A stretch of DNA of 38,181 nucleotides, taken from assembly GCA_048939015.1 (NCBI GenBank), contig JBHLPW010000049.1:1-38181 (forward strand). Reading direction: 5' to 3'. The translations under genes were made by a program, and so were the position numbers. Below, in pieces: positions 24,953 to 36,873 of the stretch. The notes under the pieces are model-generated. The model saw nothing but the letters and a program-made list of their open reading frames with translations. It had not been told where the DNA came from and searched no databases. Position 1 is the first letter of the stretch. Every line of letters starts with the position of its first letter. The stretch is from Promethearchaeota archaeon. GTDB lineage: Archaea > Asgardarchaeota > Lokiarchaeia > Sigyniarchaeales > SOKP01.

Positions 24953-25354
24953 ATGTCCGAGATTGAAGCAATTATTGATGAATTACTAGAGGTTGAACAA
25001 AATATCTATGGAATAGGAATAATAGGGAAAAATGGTAATTTAATCACTCAGACAGAAAATTGGGATTTAACTAGTGATCTCGAACTAATTAATGAATTGC
25101 TTAATCAGAAACTGGAATTAGGAGAAAAAGGGATCAGTAGTATCACTATTCAAGGTATAAAATATATGATCGTTGAAAATACAGAAGAAAGAAAAATTGG
25201 TACTAATATCATGCATAAAGGGCATATTATTATATGTCCTGTTCCAATAGGAGGTACTGGAGCATTAATATGTTATATAAATCCTCAAGCCGGTCCAAGA
25301 GATGCTCTCTTCGCAGCTCAAGAGTATGCCTTAAAACTAAAAGATTTTGTTTAA
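24953..25354 (+). CDS. Profilin (Loki-type)
   Basis: Closely matches my recollection of characterised Loki profilins: ITQTENW, KLELGEKGI (Loki-loop region), IQGIKYMIVENTEERKIGTN, PIGGTGALI, AGPRD. Confidence 0.92.
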   Translation: MSEIEAIIDELLEVEQNIYGIGIIGKNGNLITQTENWDLTSDLELINELLNQKLELGEKGISSITIQGIKYMIVENTEERKIGTNIMHKGHIIICPVPIGGTGALICYINPQAGPRDALFAAQEYALKLKDFV

Positions 25355-25369
25355 ATTTTTTTATCTTTT

Positions 25370-26488
25370 TTATTTTAATGAACTCCAATAATTATTTAGA
25401 AGTTTTTTTAGACTCGTATTAATTTTCCCTATTTCACTTTCTTTTGAATAATCTGAAAAATCTAAATATTCAATAAATGGGCGTTCATACTTCTCTTTTA
25501 ATAAAGCTTTAATTACTGAGTGTACACAAATAGGGAGTCCTATTAAGCTGTATCCCCCTTCAAGTATAAAAACTAATTTACCTTCACATATCTCCTCAGC
25601 AATTTTTAATATTTTTTCAGTGAATTTATAATATGAAATAGATGTGAGTAAGCAGTTCCCTATTGGATCAGCATAATACATATCAAAACCAGCTGCAATT
25701 AATATTATGTCGGGTTTAAATTCTCTTAAAACAAGGTCTAATATTTCAATAGCCTTCATAAAATCATTATCAGTAGAGTTAAATGGTATTGGAAAGTTAA
25801 TATTTCTTCCAAGACCTTCTCCTGAACCTATTTCATCGATAAACCCTACATCTCCTTCTACAAAATCATATTCATGAACAGAAAAATATAATACACTTGG
25901 ATCTTCATAAAAATACTGGACAAGACCATCTCCGAAATGAGCATCAATGTCAACTATTGCTATTTTTTTAGTGTATTGTAATTCTTCACGCAAGAAGATA
26001 ATTGAATTTGCGATATTATTAAATATACAAAGCCCTGAGGATTTTTCTCGTAAAGCATGATGTCCCGGGGGTCTTAGAAAGGCAAATGATTGATTTACTT
26101 CCTGATTTATAACAACGTTAATTGATGTTATAGCCGCTTCTACTGCCTTCTTTGCGAGTTCAAAAGTATCTTCAGTAATAAAGACTTCATCCTCTAATAA
26201 GCCGGTTCCTCTACTTGAGAGATTCTTAATTAAATTAATATGATATTTAGTATGTGCTAATTGAATAATATCTTCCTCTACTTTAATTGGCTTTATCTTA
26301 ATAATGTTCTCATTTTTAAAAATATCTTTCTTTTCTAAATAATTTAAGATGACTTTGATTCTTAGGGGCGTCTCATATGAAAGAAACGTCGGATATGGAT
26401 ATGGAGGTATATTTTTAGTAGCAAAATCTTCATCTACTATTATTCCAATTTTATTTCTATCTATCATCATAAAGACAAAAATTGTCAA
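25370..26488 (-). CDS. Histone deacetylase-family (Zn-dependent) deacetylase; start possibly ~26470
   Basis: RPPGHHA, GLCIFNN, DIDAHFGDG, AGFD...DP, LEGGY. Confidence 0.92.
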   Translation of the reverse strand: MTIFVFMMIDRNKIGIIVDEDFATKNIPPYPYPTFLSYETPLRIKVILNYLEKKDIFKNENIIKIKPIKVEEDIIQLAHTKYHINLIKNLSSRGTGLLEDEVFITEDTFELAKKAVEAAITSINVVINQEVNQSFAFLRPPGHHALREKSSGLCIFNNIANSIIFLREELQYTKKIAIVDIDAHFGDGLVQYFYEDPSVLYFSVHEYDFVEGDVGFIDEIGSGEGLGRNINFPIPFNSTDNDFMKAIEILDLVLREFKPDIILIAAGFDMYYADPIGNCLLTSISYYKFTEKILKIAEEICEGKLVFILEGGYSLIGLPICVHSVIKALLKEKYERPFIEYLDFSDYSKESEIGKINTSLKKLLNNYWSSLK

Positions 26489-26573: not shown

Positions 26574-28754
26574 ATGGATGTAATAGTAATCTTTCTCACA
26601 ATTTTATTAAACGCATTACCAATACTAATTTTAATAATACCTCTATTCTTTATTTGGAAAAAAACTATAGGCAAATTATATTTTAGAATATTTTTAGGAA
26701 TTGTTGTTTTCTATTTCATTTACTGGATTGTACCAATTATTTTTCAAATCATGGATGATCCTAAAGAATTAACAGGAGGAAATACAATAATAGCTATACA
26801 ATTCATAGGAGCCCGAATTGGGACATTACTGACTTTATTTGCCACTTATCCATTAGTTACCTTACCATTCATATTTTTTGTAGCACCCTTTATTTCTCTT
26901 CTAATTGTTTGGAATCGTATAAGAACAGAAGAAGGTTCTATTAAAGAGAATTTAAAACAAATTACCTATCATTTAGAAAAAAGCCCATTTCAAATGATTC
27001 GAGATGAAATCGTTAAAAAAGACTTTACGAGAGAAAAAGAAATTCTCAAATTAATGATTGTATTATTACCGATTTCTCTCTATATAGTACAAGTAATATT
27101 AACGGTTTCTGGATTAGAAAATGAAAGCCTAACGACAGGAAATACGGCAATAGGATGGTTTCTCGAGATTTTATTCGTCTATCTTGCTATTTTAATATTA
27201 AGTATTGAGCTGGTTTTTAGTTCCAAGATTGCTTTAAAGGGTAGATATATTGGTGAAGAGATAAGAAGACAGACTTTTAAAAGTCTTTATACTGTTGGAG
27301 CGCCCATTTCTATTTTATCAATTTTACTCTTTCTTGCTCAGTATTTCGATTCTATCCTCATTATTATATTCTTTTTTGCTTATTTTATAATGGCCTCAAT
27401 CATATTTGTTTTATTTCTTAGAGTTTTTGAACCTATATCTATCCTTATATTTGTGAAACTAATTGATTGGTGGAAGACTAAAAAACAAAAAATGAGAAAT
27501 ATAGATACCAGTAATATCTTACTAATTATCTTCTACGGATTAGTCGCAATTGGACTTTTCTTTGTTATATATTTAGCAATTTCCAGTTTTATCTACTATC
27601 CATATTTAAGTGATCCAGCTCTCTTAACACAGGCAAACTTTACAGAACCTAATCCGGCTTTGATAAATTCGATAAAATTTGAATTATTAATTTCACTAGG
27701 ATTTTTACAGATACTTGTGCCAATAATCATAGTAGGACTTTTCCTTTCTAAAAGTCTAAAATATGCTAAAAGTAAGTTTATAGGATATATTGTTTTTCTG
27801 CCAATTATTATCATCATATCCATCTTTCTGTATGCAGGACAAGAATATTGGTTAACGGGGCAAATAAGCTACATAATGATGTCTGACTCATATTTTATTA
27901 CTTTCAGGACTGCTAGTTTAGACGCTAATTTATCGGCAATATTACATGGATTAGCTCTTCCTTATCTATACACTAGATATATTTTTAACATAATTTTATG
28001 GAGCATCTTAATTTTCTATTTTGGTAAATCATTTAAAAGTAAAATATTAGTGAAAGATGAATTCCATCAAGAGAAGATTATTTTCAGTACAATTAGTGAA
28101 TATCTTAAATACGATGAGTATGACAAAAGTGAAATTCAATACTTAATCACAAAAAGTGAAGAAATTCTTAGAGAAAACATTGATAAAGAACGTGAAGAGG
28201 TAAAATTAATTGTAAATAAACTGGAAGAGGATAGATTTCTTAAGGAATTAAAACCTTTAGAAGAAAATGAAAAGAAACGGTTTTATTTTACCTTAAGGTA
28301 TCTTTTTAATAATAATTTTATTAATATTTGGAAACCGGAACTAAGCTATACTTTTGAACCAGCAGAAAAGCAAGGACTTTACATTATATATGATGATGGA
28401 AGAGGTGTCTATAATTATGCTTTTCAAGAAAGTGTGGATCAAGATCCCGGACTCGTTTCGGGAATGTTCTCCGCAATTACTTCTTTTGTTAAGGAAATGA
28501 CGAAATCTACTGAAGCGTTGAAAAAAATAGACCATGGTGATATTACTATTCTCTTAGAATATGGAGAACGTATATTTGGTGCTTTATTTATAAAGGGTCC
28601 TCAGTCTGCTGAAGTAAGGGCCCCTCTAAAAGAATTTGTTAATTGGTTTGAAGAAAAATATAAGGATACGTTAAAAAATTGGACTGGAGCACTTCATTCT
28701 TTCAAGATGGATGAAAATCATAAGAAGATTGAAGAGATGTTTAAAGAGGAATAA
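26574..28754 (+). CDS. Polytopic membrane protein (over 10 TM) with C-terminal cytoplasmic longin-like domain
   Basis: Hydrophobic N-terminal ~485 aa; C-terminal GLYIIYDDGRGVY...DPGLVSGMFSAITSFVKE...KIDHGDITILLEYG...FEEKY...WTG. Confidence 0.78.
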   Translation: MDVIVIFLTILLNALPILILIIPLFFIWKKTIGKLYFRIFLGIVVFYFIYWIVPIIFQIMDDPKELTGGNTIIAIQFIGARIGTLLTLFATYPLVTLPFIFFVAPFISLLIVWNRIRTEEGSIKENLKQITYHLEKSPFQMIRDEIVKKDFTREKEILKLMIVLLPISLYIVQVILTVSGLENESLTTGNTAIGWFLEILFVYLAILILSIELVFSSKIALKGRYIGEEIRRQTFKSLYTVGAPISILSILLFLAQYFDSILIIIFFFAYFIMASIIFVLFLRVFEPISILIFVKLIDWWKTKKQKMRNIDTSNILLIIFYGLVAIGLFFVIYLAISSFIYYPYLSDPALLTQANFTEPNPALINSIKFELLISLGFLQILVPIIIVGLFLSKSLKYAKSKFIGYIVFLPIIIIISIFLYAGQEYWLTGQISYIMMSDSYFITFRTASLDANLSAILHGLALPYLYTRYIFNIILWSILIFYFGKSFKSKILVKDEFHQEKIIFSTISEYLKYDEYDKSEIQYLITKSEEILRENIDKEREEVKLIVNKLEEDRFLKELKPLEENEKKRFYFTLRYLFNNNFINIWKPELSYTFEPAEKQGLYIIYDDGRGVYNYAFQESVDQDPGLVSGMFSAITSFVKEMTKSTEALKKIDHGDITILLEYGERIFGALFIKGPQSAEVRAPLKEFVNWFEEKYKDTLKNWTGALHSFKMDENHKKIEEMFKEE

Positions 28755-28835: not shown

Positions 28836-29519
28836 ATGGATCCTATTAATATAATTAAAATAATTACAGCGGCTTTAACGGTAGTTATCTCATTTGTAGT
28901 AGGATTTCATGTAATTAGATTAGATCCAAAAAAGTTATTAAATAGATGGTTTACATTATTCTTCATCTCCTCCTCTCTTGGATTTTTGTTCTACACAATT
29001 TACCATTTAATATTGAACAATTCGCAAATAGTTATTTTATTAATGATAATAGGTCAGATTTTTTTCAATTTGATCTTTTTTTCCTTAATGATGACGGTAT
29101 TTATATTAGAAAAATATGAAAAAGTCGCCATGAGTGCTAAATATCTCGGAACAATGATAGCATTATTTATTATAATGAGTGTAGGATATTTTATATGGAT
29201 TCCAACATTGAATATGACTAGATATGCTCAAGGCATCATTGATACTGAAACTCCACTTCCTTGGTTTGTTATGATTATTTCTATTAGAGCTATTTTACTT
29301 ATTTATGTTGTATATAGATACGGACTAATGTCTAGTAAATTAGAGGGAGAGATTAAAAAAAGAGTACAATGGTTTTTTATAGGAATCGTTTTCATTATTA
29401 TTGCACTTCTTATCGATTTGATTGGAGGTGCATCAGGCTTTATTTTAATTGAAGCGCTTGCCTTAATTGCGGTTGACGTTGCAACATTAACAATTTTTAA
29501 AGGTTTTTTAGTAAGATAG
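28836..29519 (+). CDS. Stand-alone 7TM sensor-like membrane protein (HisKA_7TM-like)
   Basis: Seven hydrophobic helices; 'LNRWF' in TM2; 'KKRVQWFFIG' before TM6; no output domain. Confidence 0.7.
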   Translation: MDPINIIKIITAALTVVISFVVGFHVIRLDPKKLLNRWFTLFFISSSLGFLFYTIYHLILNNSQIVILLMIIGQIFFNLIFFSLMMTVFILEKYEKVAMSAKYLGTMIALFIIMSVGYFIWIPTLNMTRYAQGIIDTETPLPWFVMIISIRAILLIYVVYRYGLMSSKLEGEIKKRVQWFFIGIVFIIIALLIDLIGGASGFILIEALALIAVDVATLTIFKGFLVR

Positions 29520-29554: not shown

Positions 29555-30016
29555 CTAAATTCCAAAGACTGATTTAATACGATCTCCTACTTTAAATCTT
29601 AAATCCCCCAATATTTCATTAATTCGAGTTTCAGATTTTTTAAAATATCTAGGATCTTTTGAAAAAATGTCATTAGGAGGAAATCTTTCAAGAAAATAAG
29701 AGACAATTTCCTTCAAATGTTGTTTTACAAAATCAGGATCTGTTTCTTTTTCAATAATGGCATAAGATAATAGAGGTTCAGGTTTTTTATTTTTTTCATC
29801 CGGTGATTGAATCATTTTGAAGTAACAAACAATTTCAAAGCCCGAAAATGAAATAACATTTATTTTATCACCATATACCTCAGTAATATAACTTTTCAAT
29901 CCAGTTAAAAATTTAGCTCTTATATTAGGATCTAAAATATTATCTGAGGATGAATAATACCTAATCTCAAGTAAACTTTTCATTCCAATGTTAATCCCAA
30001 CTTCTAAAACTGCCAT
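29555..30016 (-). CDS. Asgard longin-like domain protein, paralog of 3258..3719
   Basis: Same length (153 aa); shared MxVxExG start, SYAI(L/I)(D/E)KE and C-terminal KxVF. Confidence 0.6.
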   Translation of the reverse strand: MAVLEVGINIGMKSLLEIRYYSSSDNILDPNIRAKFLTGLKSYITEVYGDKINVISFSGFEIVCYFKMIQSPDEKNKKPEPLLSYAIIEKETDPDFVKQHLKEIVSYFLERFPPNDIFSKDPRYFKKSETRINEILGDLRFKVGDRIKSVFGI

Positions 30017-30207: not shown

Positions 30208-32811
30208 ATGAATAAAAAATCAAAAATTAAATTATACAGCTTATTTCTGGGAACAATTTTCGCCGCTTCAATTCTTTTTCTTAATAATTTCAATTTCATT
30301 TCAACATATCTAAAAGATATTTCCATAAACAATGATAACGTAATTAAAAATAATGATTATCTTAAAATTTCAAAAATTTCAGCTCCAATAAACATCGATG
30401 CTAATGATCCAAACTCTAATTGGAATATTGCTAAAAGTGCAGGGATTTGCACTGGTAATGGTACAGTTTCTGATCCATATGTGATAGAGGATCTAATTAT
30501 AGATGGTGCAAGTACTTCAAATTGTATTTTGATTGAAAATTCCAAGGTATACTTTAGGATCGAAAATTGTACTGTGTTTAATTCTGGATCTTATTCTACT
30601 CATGCTGGTATTAAATTAGTAAGGGTTGGTAATGCAACACTATTGAATAATAATATTAGCAATAATAATGCTAATGGGATTTATTTAGATCATAGTGACT
30701 ATAATTTGATTTCAAGCAACATTCTAAATAATAATGATGATCATGGAATTTATTTATATTGGAGTGTTGAAAACGATATTTTAAGCAATGATGCAAGTTA
30801 TAATCATCGCGATGGAATTTTTCTCGAACATAGCCATTTAAGTCAATTTTCGGGTAACACTGTAAACTATAATCATGGTAACGGGATTAATTCTCCAATG
30901 TATCTTGATAGTAATTTTAACATATTAACTACTAATACAGTGAATAATAATTGGGGTACTGGAATAGAATTAAGTACTTCATCTTATTGCACGGTATCAG
31001 TAAATGAAGTAATTAATAACGGTAATTATGGGATTAATATGAATGGTTATGATAATTTAATTTCTGGTAATAACGTTAATAATAATTACTACGGAATACG
31101 ATTAGATAGGTGTTACAATAGTGAAGTCTCCAAAAATACTGTGAATTATAACACGAATACTGGGATCATGATTTTCGAAGGATCTAATAATCGAGTTTCA
31201 GAAAATGATGTTATCAATAATGATGAATATGGGATTTCAATAAGTGGAGATGATCATAGTATTACAGGAAATATCATTAATTTTAATGAAGTTGGGATTC
31301 TTGTAATGGATTGTTTTGATATTGAAATTATGGGTAATGGTATAAGATATAGTGATTTATATGGGATTCATGTAACAAACAGCTTTGCTATTACAATCAC
31401 AATAAACTCATTTATTGACAATTCTGTTGCGGTGTATATATATAAATCAGATGCGGACCTTTCAAATAATGTTTTTAATGGCAATGATGTTGATGTGCGA
31501 GAAATTGCTGAACCATCATTTCCTTACGCTGCGGTAATAACAGGAACTCTTATTGTAATCGGATTGTTAATAGGCAGTTTGTTTATAGTTAGAAGAAAAA
31601 AATTCAAAGCTAGAACCAAAATTTCTTCAAGTGATAAACTTAAGGAAAAGTTCCAAGTAACGGAAATACCTAAAGTAGAAAGAGCTCTAGAGGATGATAG
31701 TAAATTAGATTTAGCAATACAAGAAATAAAAGAAGAAATACCTGTTCAAGATGAATTAAAAGTTGAGTTAAGTACTGAACAGTTAAGATCTAAATATAAA
31801 TATGAGATTGATAAAATAAGAGAAAAAGTATATAATAAAAATTATTTTATCAGCTTACTCGGTATAGATCAAATCCTTATCCAATTTGAGAAATTCAATC
31901 TTAAAGAAAGACAGGAATCTCAGGATGCTTATTTAGAGTTAATTTTTAAGTATGCTACTCGGTTTTGTGAAATAGACAATGAAGTCCTAATTAGTGAGAT
32001 CCATATCGAAAAAGCTGTTAAAGAATTGTATAGAAAAGACTTGATGAGGACGTTTAGTGTGAGTGAGCTTGAGGAACAACCAGCAAAAGTAGAAATTTTA
32101 CACGAAGAGGAAGAAGTAGAGCAAAATGAAGTCGCAAAAGATGAGTTGGGACAAATATTGAGTATCGAACAGGTAAGAGATAGATATGATAAATATAATA
32201 GAGAAATTGAGAAAATCAGAGATAAATTTCAGAGTCAAAATGTATTTGTTAACTTAAAAGGTGTTAATGAAGTCATTAATTCAATTGAAAAATTAAACCT
32301 AAAAAAGAGAGAAGAAATTCTTGATGATTATTTAGAAAAACTACTAAATTATGCAATTATCTTTTGTAAAAATGGTAATGAGAATTTAGTGAATGAGAGT
32401 CATATCCAAATGGCATTTCAAGAGATATATAGAACAGAATTGGACTTAATAAAAAAAATCCAATTAAGTGAAGAAATTAGCGCAATCAGGCCAGAAGCAC
32501 AACCCAGTGAATTGCAGGTGGAAATTATGGAAGAAGAGAAAATAAGTGTTTCAGAAGTTTTACCATTAGAAGAAGACGTCATAGAAGAAAAGGAAATTGG
32601 AGTAAGCGCTCCCGTGGATCAAATAGAAGAATTGCCTATAGAGGAACAAACACCAATAGTAGAAGAAGTGATAAAAATCGAACATGAGGAACCACCAGAA
32701 GAAATATTACCCCCTGAACCTCAAATAACTTACTGTCCTTTCTGTGGGTTTGTTTTTGATGAAACACCAAACTTTTGTCCACAATGTGGGATGATATTTA
32801 AGAAAAAATAA
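30208..32811 (+). CDS. Surface NosD/right-handed beta-helix protein with TM, duplicated cytoplasmic helical domain and C-terminal zinc ribbon
   Basis: Signal/anchor, GNGTVSDPYVIE motif, Asn-rich GIxL repeats, TM ~31519-31590, two ~92-aa repeats, acidic linker, CPFC-x10-CPQC. Confidence 0.82.
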   Translation: MNKKSKIKLYSLFLGTIFAASILFLNNFNFISTYLKDISINNDNVIKNNDYLKISKISAPINIDANDPNSNWNIAKSAGICTGNGTVSDPYVIEDLIIDGASTSNCILIENSKVYFRIENCTVFNSGSYSTHAGIKLVRVGNATLLNNNISNNNANGIYLDHSDYNLISSNILNNNDDHGIYLYWSVENDILSNDASYNHRDGIFLEHSHLSQFSGNTVNYNHGNGINSPMYLDSNFNILTTNTVNNNWGTGIELSTSSYCTVSVNEVINNGNYGINMNGYDNLISGNNVNNNYYGIRLDRCYNSEVSKNTVNYNTNTGIMIFEGSNNRVSENDVINNDEYGISISGDDHSITGNIINFNEVGILVMDCFDIEIMGNGIRYSDLYGIHVTNSFAITITINSFIDNSVAVYIYKSDADLSNNVFNGNDVDVREIAEPSFPYAAVITGTLIVIGLLIGSLFIVRRKKFKARTKISSSDKLKEKFQVTEIPKVERALEDDSKLDLAIQEIKEEIPVQDELKVELSTEQLRSKYKYEIDKIREKVYNKNYFISLLGIDQILIQFEKFNLKERQESQDAYLELIFKYATRFCEIDNEVLISEIHIEKAVKELYRKDLMRTFSVSELEEQPAKVEILHEEEEVEQNEVAKDELGQILSIEQVRDRYDKYNREIEKIRDKFQSQNVFVNLKGVNEVINSIEKLNLKKREEILDDYLEKLLNYAIIFCKNGNENLVNESHIQMAFQEIYRTELDLIKKIQLSEEISAIRPEAQPSELQVEIMEEEKISVSEVLPLEEDVIEEKEIGVSAPVDQIEELPIEEQTPIVEEVIKIEHEEPPEEILPPEPQITYCPFCGFVFDETPNFCPQCGMIFKKK
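31768..32442 (+). repeat. Two diverged intragenic ~92-aa repeats (~31768-32043 and ~32158-32442), histone-fold-like
   Basis: LSTEQLR...IDKIREK...EKFNLK...YLELIFKYA..FC...HIEKAVKELYR versus LSIEQVR...IEKIRDK...EKLNLK...YLEKLLNYA..FC...HIQMAFQEIYR. Confidence 0.85.
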
Positions 32812-33588: not shown

Positions 33589-34113
33589 ATGTTAAAAAAT
33601 AAAAAAAAAATACTAATTTTAGGTCTTGCAAATAGTGGTAAAACCTCTATAGCTCTCTCTATGCAAGATGTCACAGATTTAATATCTTTTACGTCCCTTC
33701 CACCCACAAGGGGAATTGAGATTTCGGAGTTTGAAAATGAAGACACCAAATATTATATATGGGATTTTGGAGGACAAGAGAAATATAGAGAACAATATAA
33801 GAAAAACCTAAATAAATATATCTCTGAAACAAGTGAGATAATTTATGTTATCGACATCCAAGATGATAATGTATTTTTTATATCAGTCGTTTTCTTAAGA
33901 GAAATCCTAAATATTTTAAAGGAAGCTGGTCTGTATTTTGAAATATCCATATTTTTTCATAAATTTGACGACAATTTCAAACCAGATGAAGAAAAAGTTA
34001 GGAACTTATTGAAAATTATTAAAGAAGAAATTCCTGAAGGGTTTACCTATAAAATTTTTCATACCAAAATAAAAGCCCTTTTTGAAAAAAAAATTTCATC
34101 ATATCATGTATAA
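33589..34113 (+). CDS. Small GTPase, Rag/Gtr- or Arf-related, G-domain only
   Basis: LGLANSGKTS, PTRG, WDFGGQEKYR, YVID, HKFD (His-type G4 as in Rag). Confidence 0.85.
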   Translation: MLKNKKKILILGLANSGKTSIALSMQDVTDLISFTSLPPTRGIEISEFENEDTKYYIWDFGGQEKYREQYKKNLNKYISETSEIIYVIDIQDDNVFFISVVFLREILNILKEAGLYFEISIFFHKFDDNFKPDEEKVRNLLKIIKEEIPEGFTYKIFHTKIKALFEKKISSYHV

Positions 34114-34374: not shown

Positions 34375-35463
34375 TTGGCGAAGAAAATGAAGAAATTTAA
34401 TAGAAGAAAGACAATTGTTTTAATCACTTTCGGAATTCTTTTCGCTTTCTCAATTATTATTACCATAAATCTTAGTTTTATTATGGGTAATAGCAGCAAA
34501 AGTTCGAACCATAGCGACAACAAAAAATTAAGAATGTCGAAAATATCGGGAAAAATTCATATTGATAATAATTGGACTGCTGCCAAGAGTGTGGGAATAA
34601 CTACGGGGAATGGAACATTTTCTGAACCTTATGTCATAGAAGATTTGGTAATAGATGCCGGAGGTTCGGAAACTGGCATCCTGATTGAAAATTCAGATGT
34701 GTACTTTAGGATTGAAAATTGTACAATCTACAATTCGGGAAATAAATCTCTGCATGTTACAGGATTTGGAATCCGATTATCATATGTTAGTAATTCCCAA
34801 TTAATTAATAATAATTGCTCATCTAATTACATCGGAATACATATAGGAAATTGTGATAATATTACCATTTCCGGGAACATCGTAAATGATAATTATCAAG
34901 GAATATGGTTTTGTGATGACTGTGATTACAACACTATTTCTGGAAATACTGTAAATAACAACGAGGAGAGAGGAATGCATTTACATTTAAACGATTACAA
35001 CTCTATTACGGGAAACAAATTTAATCACAATGGTGAATGTGGATTGTATTTAGGGATAAGCCGTTATAACAACATTATGGGAAACAATTTAGATAGTAAT
35101 GCTATAGGGATATGTTTACTCCTTAATAGTGATTACAACATAATTTCGGGAAACAATGCAAGCTACAATGAAGTCTATGGGATATGGTTACATTTTAGTA
35201 ATTACAATACAATTTCGGGAAATAAATTAATTGGGAATAATAATAAATGTTGGAAGGAAGAATCTTGTGAAGGTAATCTTTTTGAAAATAACGAATGTAG
35301 TGGTGGGAACACTTCACTAATTACTCTATTCATTTTGATATTTTCCACAATCGTTCTGTTTAGCATTATTTCGGTTGTCGTAATCCTTATAAGTAAAAAA
35401 CTTATGGTTCATAAGCAATTATCAACTTATAGTTTAATTAATGATGTAGCTAAATATCGCTAA
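34375..35463 (+). CDS. Membrane-anchored NosD/beta-helix surface protein; probable start ATG 34387
   Basis: Signal/anchor, GNGTFSEPYVIEDLVID...YFRIENCTIYNSG, Asn-rich repeats, C-terminal TM. Confidence 0.85.
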   Translation: MAKKMKKFNRRKTIVLITFGILFAFSIIITINLSFIMGNSSKSSNHSDNKKLRMSKISGKIHIDNNWTAAKSVGITTGNGTFSEPYVIEDLVIDAGGSETGILIENSDVYFRIENCTIYNSGNKSLHVTGFGIRLSYVSNSQLINNNCSSNYIGIHIGNCDNITISGNIVNDNYQGIWFCDDCDYNTISGNTVNNNEERGMHLHLNDYNSITGNKFNHNGECGLYLGISRYNNIMGNNLDSNAIGICLLLNSDYNIISGNNASYNEVYGIWLHFSNYNTISGNKLIGNNNKCWKEESCEGNLFENNECSGGNTSLITLFILIFSTIVLFSIISVVVILISKKLMVHKQLSTYSLINDVAKYR

Positions 35464-35532: not shown

Positions 35533-36873
35533 TTAAGTGATAATAATCGTTATCAAACTGATCATTACAGCAATAATACTAATTATTACTGCTATTACAC
35601 CTCCAATTCTTTCATTTTTGATGGTATGGAATTTCAACCGTTTTTCTGGAGCTATACCTTTTACATTTGGCAAAAAATTACGACAAACTTCATTTTTCAC
35701 TTTATTTTTAAAAATACATAAGTTTCGAACTTGTAAAGCAATCCTTCTATCTTCAATTTTACTGAGATCGATCGTTTTATTAAATGCACACAAATTGCAT
35801 CCCCATTTTTTCTTTAAACTTTTTAAAGATGATTGAGGCATTAGATTACCTTCTAAATTAAGTCGCTTAAGTTTATTTATTTCATAAACTGAATTTGGGA
35901 TAGATTCTAAGTTATTATCTTCAAGATTTAATATTTTGAGTGATTTAAGTTTGGATATCGATTCTGGCAATCTTCTAAGTTTATTCTTATCGAGATTAAG
36001 TTTTTTCAAATTAGTGAGATCACCAATAGTTTCTGGTAAAATTGAAAGATTTGTGTCTCTAATACTAAGCTCGATCAAATTATCAAGATTTCCAATTGAA
36101 TTAGGTAAAGTACTAATTTTATTATTTTCAATGTAAATTCTTTTTAATTTATTAAGATGCCAAATAGATTCGGGCAATTCAGTGAGTTTACTATTAAAAA
36201 TGCCAAGATATTTTAAGTTGATAAGGTTTCCAATTGAGTCAGGTAGTTTTAAAAGTGGGCTATTTTCAATATAAAGCCTTATTAAATTGGGACGTTCCTC
36301 TAAAAATTCAGGTATTTTTGAAATATTACTTGCTCTAATATATAAAATCTCTAATTTCGGAAGTTTTCCAAGATCCTTGGGCAATTCTGTGATTTCCTTA
36401 GCATTAATATCAAGATATCTTAAATTTTTGAGGTTAGGAATCGTATCGGGCAAAGAAAACAGATTATTACTCTCAATAACAAGTTTTTGTAATGTATTAA
36501 GATTTCCAATAGTTTCTGGTAGTTCCTTGAGATCATGTTCTACAATATGTAATTCTCGTAATTTTGGAAGGTCACCAAGAGATTCTGGTAATGTAGTAAG
36601 CTGATTGTTTATAAGATTTAGTCTATACAAAATAGAAAGCTTATCAATAGATTCAGGTAATTCTACGAGATTACTGTTTGAAATATACAGTCTTTCTAAT
36701 TTCTTAAGATCCACGATTGACGGGGGTAATTGTTTGAGACGATATTTTCGGATGTCTAGAAATACAATTGATCCTTCCCCCACAATAAAATGTGGGTATA
36801 CTTTCGATGATTTTTGAAGATCTCTTAGAGTTATTACTTCTATTTCTCTTAAATTGGGGTATAAAACTGTCAT
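35533..36873 (-). CDS. Leucine-rich repeat protein (about 13 x 23-aa repeats) with Cys motif and C-terminal tail anchor
   Basis: LxxLPxSIGNLxNLxxLxI repeats; CNLC...C...C; terminal hydrophobic GGVIAVIISIIAVMISLITIIIT*. Confidence 0.92.
   Translation of the reverse strand: MTVLYPNLREIEVITLRDLQKSSKVYPHFIVGEGSIVFLDIRKYRLKQLPPSIVDLKKLERLYISNSNLVELPESIDKLSILYRLNLINNQLTTLPESLGDLPKLRELHIVEHDLKELPETIGNLNTLQKLVIESNNLFSLPDTIPNLKNLRYLDINAKEITELPKDLGKLPKLEILYIRASNISKIPEFLEERPNLIRLYIENSPLLKLPDSIGNLINLKYLGIFNSKLTELPESIWHLNKLKRIYIENNKISTLPNSIGNLDNLIELSIRDTNLSILPETIGDLTNLKKLNLDKNKLRRLPESISKLKSLKILNLEDNNLESIPNSVYEINKLKRLNLEGNLMPQSSLKSLKKKWGCNLCAFNKTIDLSKIEDRRIALQVRNLCIFKNKVKNEVCRNFLPNVKGIAPEKRLKFHTIKNERIGGVIAVIISIIAVMISLITIIIT

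Follow-up and report, generated by a model that had tools for sequence, protein, structure and literature searches.

AAA+ lid-like modules predicted in the cytoplasmic tail of a Lokiarchaeal beta-helix surface protein

A beta-helix membrane protein with a duplicated tail module

The window (i.e., the whole stretch of 38,181 nucleotides analyzed here, from a Lokiarchaeal contig) encodes a membrane protein with the following features.

30208..32811, + strand: open reading frame (ORF) of the 867-amino-acid (aa) membrane protein, with a beta-helix ectodomain, a transmembrane (TM) segment, and a tail carrying two lid-like modules, an acidic linker, and a zinc ribbon (ORF call, translation, Pfam)
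30226..30282, + strand: N-terminal hydrophobic segment, signal or anchor, aa 7 to 25 (hydropathy)
30373..31497, + strand: ectodomain, a NosD-like right-handed parallel beta-helix, approximately aa 56 to 430 (PF13229, PF05048, TIGR03804)
31534..31590, + strand: TM helix, aa 443 to 461, followed by a basic stop-transfer patch (hydropathy)
31768..32055, + strand: repeat 1, aa 521 to 616, predicted AAA+ C-domain (lid)-like closed four-helix bundle with a short extra N-terminal helix (self-alignment, model, Dpoe2NT match)
32056..32157, + strand: linker between the repeats, acidic (12 D/E in 34 aa) and disordered by prediction, with pLDDT <50 (composition, tandem model)
32158..32454, + strand: repeat 2, aa 651 to 749, with a predicted lid-like fold as in repeat 1 (model, structure searches)
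32293..32310, + strand: predicted hinge of repeat 2, model residues 46 to 51 (DSSP break between helices 33-45 and 52-72; -2/+1 indels in relatives)
32455..32721, + strand: low-complexity linker, acidic and proline rich (28 D/E and 11 P in 89 aa; composition)
32722..32808, + strand: C4 zinc ribbon at the C terminus (weak Pfam matches, conservation in the family)

The ectodomain matched the Beta_helix (PF13229; E = 2.5e-33) and NosD (PF05048; E = 1.8e-30) families. Basic residues flank both hydrophobic segments on their inner side, which places the tail in the cytoplasm according to the positive-inside rule. After the TM helix, this tail extends for 400 aa to the C4 zinc ribbon, which recurs in all complete family members and is 93% identical in the G065 orthologue. 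The two repeats that a first-pass annotation of this DNA had described behind the TM segment, in the cytoplasmic tail, are real (45% identity over 95 columns, E = 3e-26), although repeat 2 ends approximately 12 bp beyond position 32442, where it had been terminated. A genome-wide search revealed no third copy in the host genome.

Neither an AAA family match nor a Walker A motif was found in the 867-aa protein, and no P-loop core precedes the module. Searches of Pfam, NCBIfam, and PDB sequences with the repeats returned no significant match. In Pfam, the units were weakly and equally similar to Dpoe2NT, the N-terminal domain of DNA polymerase epsilon subunit B (E = 0.012), and to the archaeal histone family (E = 0.014), with PF00808 being matched by 2 of 18 units, below the cutoff. 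Feature searches of the ESM Atlas with the module were blank.

The gene lies downstream of a conserved block that includes a profilin-like gene (window 24953-25354; weak PF00235). Three further genes of this block, each without a Pfam match, encode a 726-aa polytopic membrane protein (26574-28754; missing in some relatives, L099 and L106), a 227-aa membrane protein (28836-29519), and a 153-aa protein (29555-30016). Downstream are genes for an Arf/Rag-like small GTPase (33589-34113), another beta-helix TM protein, whose tail is very short (34375-35463), and a leucine-rich-repeat-like protein with a hydrophobic segment at its C terminus (35533-36873); these downstream neighbors were not seen adjoining the module gene in relatives.

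A genus-restricted family with receptor and soluble forms

Searches of 1.84 billion representatives, a 5.8-billion set, and the GTDB genomes recovered approximately 20 proteins with the module, from which 27 units were aligned. In GTDB, the module occurred in 8 of the 54 genomes of the host genus and, one spurious match aside, was not found among 400 genomes of the phylum outside that genus. The spurious match (G169; E = 5.6e-4) was a Lys-rich stretch of an unrelated, eIF-2B family-like protein. No small stand-alone relatives of 32 to 174 aa were found apart from one fragment, and pattern scans of genome and metagenome contigs gave no match.

Several architectures were represented in the family. 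A beta-helix and a TM segment were combined with two units in the window protein and G065 and with one unit in P0006, P0017, and P0018; P0008 had one unit and a TM segment only. The remaining proteins were soluble, with either one unit (P0007, P0010, P0014, P0015, P0016, and G026) or two (P0005, P0012, and P0013), and these forms start at the module. Every complete member ends in an acidic linker and a zinc ribbon. Ten complete members are single copy and five carry two units, so the tandem arrangement is not essential. A tree of the units did not separate one from several tandem duplications. Conservation was 67 to 69% in the repeats, compared with 69% in the ectodomain, and the conserved surface residues were R7, K12, R21, D/N37, E38, E44, and E80 (repeat 2 numbering).

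Receptor and soluble forms can occupy the same locus, as read from sequence comparison, like the repeat, its architecture, and its distribution. Locus L113 (receptor P0017, 724 aa) and locus L101 (soluble P0010, 220 aa) are 97% identical upstream and 94% identical from the module onward. Directly before its ATG, L101 retains eight bases of linker Val codons (L101:3590-3610 versus L113:670-690 and L113:2165-2185), which suggests that the ectodomain and TM segment were deleted in L101, i.e., that its soluble gene is a deletion product of a receptor gene. At the window's locus, receptor forms (the window protein, G065, and P0006) and soluble forms (P0007, P0012, P0014, and P0015) share the upstream gene; a seven-base match is common to the receptor and soluble starts, so the change there may have run in either direction. 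The module stays highly identical without the membrane anchor.

Our search detected 38 beta-helix ORFs in the host genome, 29 with a late TM segment and 11 with tails of >80 aa. Judged by C-terminal sequence, five of the 11 long tails are TIR-like, one is WD40-like, and five end in a zinc ribbon. In a paralogue of this receptor encoded elsewhere in the host genome (C71:44567-46093), the juxtamembrane stretch and the zinc ribbon are the same but the module is missing; the module is therefore an optional part of the tail.

Each repeat is predicted to fold alone into a lid-like bundle

A single repeat modeled by AlphaFold with the family alignment, which is shallow (27 units), reached a pLDDT of 92 and a pTM of 0.83, with all five models between 85 and 92. 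Helices were predicted at residues 3-12, 14-26, 33-45, 52-72, and 80-93, and strands at residues 30-31 and 77-78 (repeat 2 numbering). Because the single-repeat model has only these two strands, they must pair with each other, and the beta-bridge is closed within the chain. The predicted topology, a closed helix-strand-helix, hinge, helix-strand-helix monomer with an intrachain parallel beta-bridge, is that of an AAA+ lid. The first-pass annotation had reported an insertion of approximately 13 aa in histone helix alpha2; an insertion is present but amounts to 12 residues, and it coincides with the hinge that separates lids from histones. According to DSSP, the central helix is broken at model residues 46 to 51.

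In an AlphaFold model of the tandem, both repeats kept this fold on either side of the disordered linker, with no defined packing and a pTM of 0.46, as would be expected for two domains without a fixed mutual orientation. Only five alignment rows spanned both repeats, so that the tandem model is weak taken alone. Good structural matches to it span one repeat each. A complex prediction for repeats 1 and 2 scored 0.11 (mark, 0.32) and counts neither for nor against pairing. The closed form may be favored in the single-repeat model because it was folded as a monomer.

Structure searches placed AAA+ lids ahead of histones. The top matches included the LonB lid (3k1j; Z = 10.1, root mean square deviation [rmsd] of 2.8, 86 residues aligned), the RuvBL lid (Z = 9.6 to 10.2, rmsd of 2.2 to 2.3), the N-terminal 79 residues of a replisome chain (7pfo_A; Z = 10.2), and Dpoe2NT (Z = 9.1 in the single-repeat search; Z = 10.1, rmsd of 2.0, and 75 aligned residues against repeat 1), followed by the lids of MCM, ORC1, Cdc6, RFC, and DnaA. 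Single-chain histone pairs trailed with Z = 7.5 to 8.4 and were aligned through both of their halves onto one repeat (1f1e, 4-154; 1q9c, 11-177). Nearly all of the top 50 matches were lids or histone pairs. Identities were 7 to 19%. A structure search of the Atlas gave the LonB lid a TM score of 0.73 and an H2B-family cluster 0.72. The first row of the Foldseek results was a single-chain Cse4/H4 construct (E = 0.027, rmsd of 5.2; Z = 8.4 on realignment), and no Foldseek match reached E = 0.001. The Z values of approximately 10 are middling for helical bundles, for which the tool asks approximately 13; the lid assignment draws on the consistency of the matches and on the topology. On these model-based grounds, the repeats probably have the AAA+ C-domain (lid) fold.

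Weak sequence signals to lids and histones

Two helix-strand-helix motifs make up both histones and AAA+ C-domains. In C-domains a hinge lies between the motifs, in histones they are continuous, and one C-domain superposes on half of a histone dimer (Alva 2007, PMC1847821). The strand-pair topology of the module and its two crossover alanines fit the motif described in that work. In profile comparisons, the best score was obtained against Lokiarchaeal Cdc6/Orc1 lids (21.5 over 60 columns, P = 0.0023, probability of 12.6%); none of 150 block shuffles reached it, and the alignment takes in the helix after the second strand. The histone-like alignment of the first-pass annotation was reproducible but weak: the HMM-HMM comparison with 32 Lokiarchaeal histones scored 18.3 (P = 0.01) over 47 columns and opened a gap of 12 residues in alpha2; 1 of 150 shuffles reached this score. 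Cdc6 lids themselves scored 20.3 against the histones, equal to or above the module, and the histone signal is thus what an ordinary lid shows and is not specific. Neither MCM lids (score of 16.1, reached by 9 of 100 shuffles) nor Lokiarchaeal DP1N (11.0, reached by 42 of 150 shuffles) were significant as parents.

Spacing and composition distinguish the module from histones. The distance from strand to strand was 47 in 22 of 25 units and 35 in all 32 Lokiarchaeal histones; the module falls between Cdc6 lids (41) and MCM lids (52), and its hinge site accepts indels of -2 and +1 among relatives. As the first-pass annotation had stated, the basic L2 motif is missing from the repeats: the pattern RK-K/R-x-T/Q was present in 32 of 32 histones and in 0 of 27 units. 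The net charge of the units is near zero (mostly -3 to +4), compared with +3 to +16 for the histones save one. One Lokiarchaeal histone (L048:565-816, minus strand) differs from the other 31 in that its C terminus is extended by an acidic stretch and its net charge is -5. The sensor-2 arginine, which in AAA+ lids sits where helix 3 begins, is absent from the module, the Cdc6 arginine facing Leu or Gln in the profile alignment, and no conserved Arg was found in the columns covering a possible register error of two at this site.

The Cdc6-lid and histone signals are both weak guides to the ancestry of the family. In one alternative reading, the same closed fold derives from an archaeal histone in which an insertion of 12 residues restored the hinge, reversing the lid-to-histone swap, and may still be able to swap into dimers. 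The histone score is near the Cdc6-lid score, the genome has five histone genes, and a genus-restricted module must have arisen recently from something; moreover, the best structural parents, the LonB (PF20436) and RuvBL (TIP49_C, PF17856) lids, had no match in 31 genomes of the host order. We nevertheless regard histone descent as unlikely, given that Cdc6, a true lid, matches histones equally well, that the units have neither the L2 motif nor the basic charge of histones, and that the Cdc6 alignment is longer, with smaller gaps. Improbable, too, is the joint proposal that the module either came from a histone by this route and is now a monomer, or is a lid still able to alternate, upon receptor clustering, between the closed monomeric state and a swapped dimer of the histone type. 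If it were true, the module would be a natural intermediate of the lid-to-histone swap, used as a signaling switch of Asgard receptors.

Predicted ATPase-free lid modules as candidate docking domains

In the reading that we prefer, with a probability of roughly 60% for the whole, the repeats are ATPase-free AAA+ C-domain (lid) modules that are optional on the receptor tail and likely dock proteins. Each repeat would be a self-contained lid-fold domain, with two helix-strand-helix motifs, a hinge, and a bridge closed within the chain. It is an optional element of the acidic, zinc-ribbon-tipped tail that one branch of the beta-helix surface proteins in this genome carries. The tail would offer either a single docking domain or two that are independent of each other, tethered by flexible acidic linkers; a second copy would add avidity and would not be needed to complete the fold, and the zinc ribbon may be a second interaction site. 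Given the lid fold, the docking role is probable by analogy with free C-domains such as Dpoe2NT, the first to be described and one without sensor 2 (PMC2528186), and DP1N and Dpb2N, which bind GINS (PMC9023282). Nucleotide sensing is unlikely because both the ATPase core and the sensor-2 arginine are absent. The architecture suggests that a signal may pass from the beta-helix to the module, and since soluble forms exist, the module is independent of such a transfer; protein binding and any signaling role are likewise what we infer for it. The module is a real, unnamed, genus-restricted family with a predicted lid fold, free of an ATPase and in a new setting.

A special case of this reading would be a lid mimic: docked on an AAA+ ring (Cdc6/Orc1, PAN, Cdc48, or Vps4), the module would substitute for the lid of the ring itself and would recruit the ring or inhibit it. 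The lid fold is compatible with this idea, as is the best sequence signal, which points to Cdc6/Orc1 lids and extends into the helix behind the second strand. However, no AAA+ gene was seen adjoining the module gene at the loci examined, and none of the genome's ATPases stands out against the module profile, which makes the special case distinctly improbable. It is very improbable that the module is a generic helical bundle that converged on the shape and is kin to neither lids nor histones. The low identities, the middling Z values, and the lack of significant family or PDB sequence matches would fit such a bundle, but the structural matches concentrate on lids and histone pairs, the strand pairing and crossover alanines follow the known motif, and the Cdc6 score lies above all shuffles.

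The first-pass annotation had favored a pseudodimer in which repeats 1 and 2 interleave in a histone-fold handshake, as in the histone domain of SOS, with an AAA+ lid-like hairpin as its main alternative; the M. kandleri doublet would be another such handshake. Despite the weak histone profile and PF00808 matches, the scores of histone pairs and the H2B-family cluster, and the known fusions of prokaryotic histone folds to Rab GTPases or TM segments (PMC11390915), the pseudodimer is highly improbable: the 12 extra residues form an indel-tolerant hinge, the beta-bridge is closed inside each repeat in both models, the SOS doublet aligns with one repeat and not with the pair, and ten complete relatives have a single copy. 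Prediction gave a closed monomer, not a histone fold, and the structures that match it best are AAA+ lids; both outcomes are among those that the first-pass annotation had named as counting against its own proposal. The lid alternative was the better reading, although the models contain a whole four-helix C-domain and no hairpin. What endures, as a prediction, is a non-DNA-binding helical module, histone-related in shape, that a receptor-like protein carries in its cytoplasmic tail.

Comparison with known systems

The closest counterparts of the module are Dpoe2NT (PDB 2v6z, PF12213), DP1N, and Pol alpha p68N, which are also free C-domain folds without an ATPase. Dpoe2NT and the module (Z = 9.1 to 10.1, rmsd of 2.0 to 2.4) are both charged and lack the sensor-2 arginine (PMC2528186). 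Whereas these counterparts sit on polymerase subunits and bind GINS, in the known cases its C-terminal domain, the module resides on a membrane-protein tail or in a small soluble protein; unlike them, it possesses one more helix at its N terminus and may occur in duplicate, and it has no profile similarity to Lokiarchaeal DP1N. AAA+ lids (LonB 3k1j, RuvBL1/2, Cdc6/Orc1 PF22606, and MCM PF17855) share the four-helix bundle, hinge, and intrachain parallel beta-bridge (Z up to 10.2), but the sequence signal to Cdc6/Orc1 lids is weak, and the module has no P-loop core, sensor-2 arginine, or family-level match.

The SOS histone domain (1q9c) and the M. kandleri histone (1f1e) have the helix-strand-helix in common with the module, one repeat fitting half of the pseudodimer (Z = 7.5 to 7.8), and SOS has likewise lost its DNA-binding residues; the basic L2 motif and positive charge are not required for SOS-type folds. 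Double histone folds (reviewed in PMC13088155) have a continuous alpha2 and need a partner, whereas each repeat of the module is predicted to be complete alone. Prokaryotic histone fusions (PMC11390915), among them the Rab GTPase histones of Lokiarchaea and the transmembrane histones, resemble the module in joining a histone-related part to signaling or membrane parts, the Rab type occurring in the same lineage. Such prokaryotic fusions are classed as true histone folds; the central region of the module is 12 residues longer than in nucleosomal histones and hinge-broken, and in the models it lacks the continuous alpha2 that defines histone fusions and double histone folds. The module provides no evidence for an archaeal SOS-like histone signaling domain.

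We found nothing relevant in the literature on a beta-helix receptor carrying this module. DNA polymerase B subunits were the first proteins for which free AAA+ lid folds were described; here, such a fold is predicted in the tail that a surface protein extends into the cytoplasm, where it would be a new output type beside the TIR, WD40-like, and zinc-ribbon tails of Lokiarchaeal beta-helix receptors. Because it occurs in only 8 of the 54 genomes in a single genus, its weight is limited. As a small, soluble, naturally hinged object, the module offers a test of the lid-to-histone domain-swap hypothesis, under which shortening the hinge by 12 residues should yield a histone-like dimer.

Other genes and contigs

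A deacetylase gene (PF00850) is located near the module gene at two of three loci (window 25370-26488 and L098:5956-7149). These are distinct paralogues that share 29% identity, and a functional link with the module is a weak, post hoc association that could be due to chance. At L098 (GCA_048885385.1), the module gene and one other gene appear to have been inserted beside the second deacetylase paralogue. At its source, this genome is labeled Odinarchaeota; the flanking genes in L098 are approximately 80% identical to host contig C17, which suggests a Lokiarchaeal contig. Elsewhere, L116:1483-2778 (G000 C47:2918-4213, minus strand) encodes a degenerate paralogue of MCM, 432 aa in length, that matches the MCM lid (E = 6e-8) and has altered ATPase motifs.
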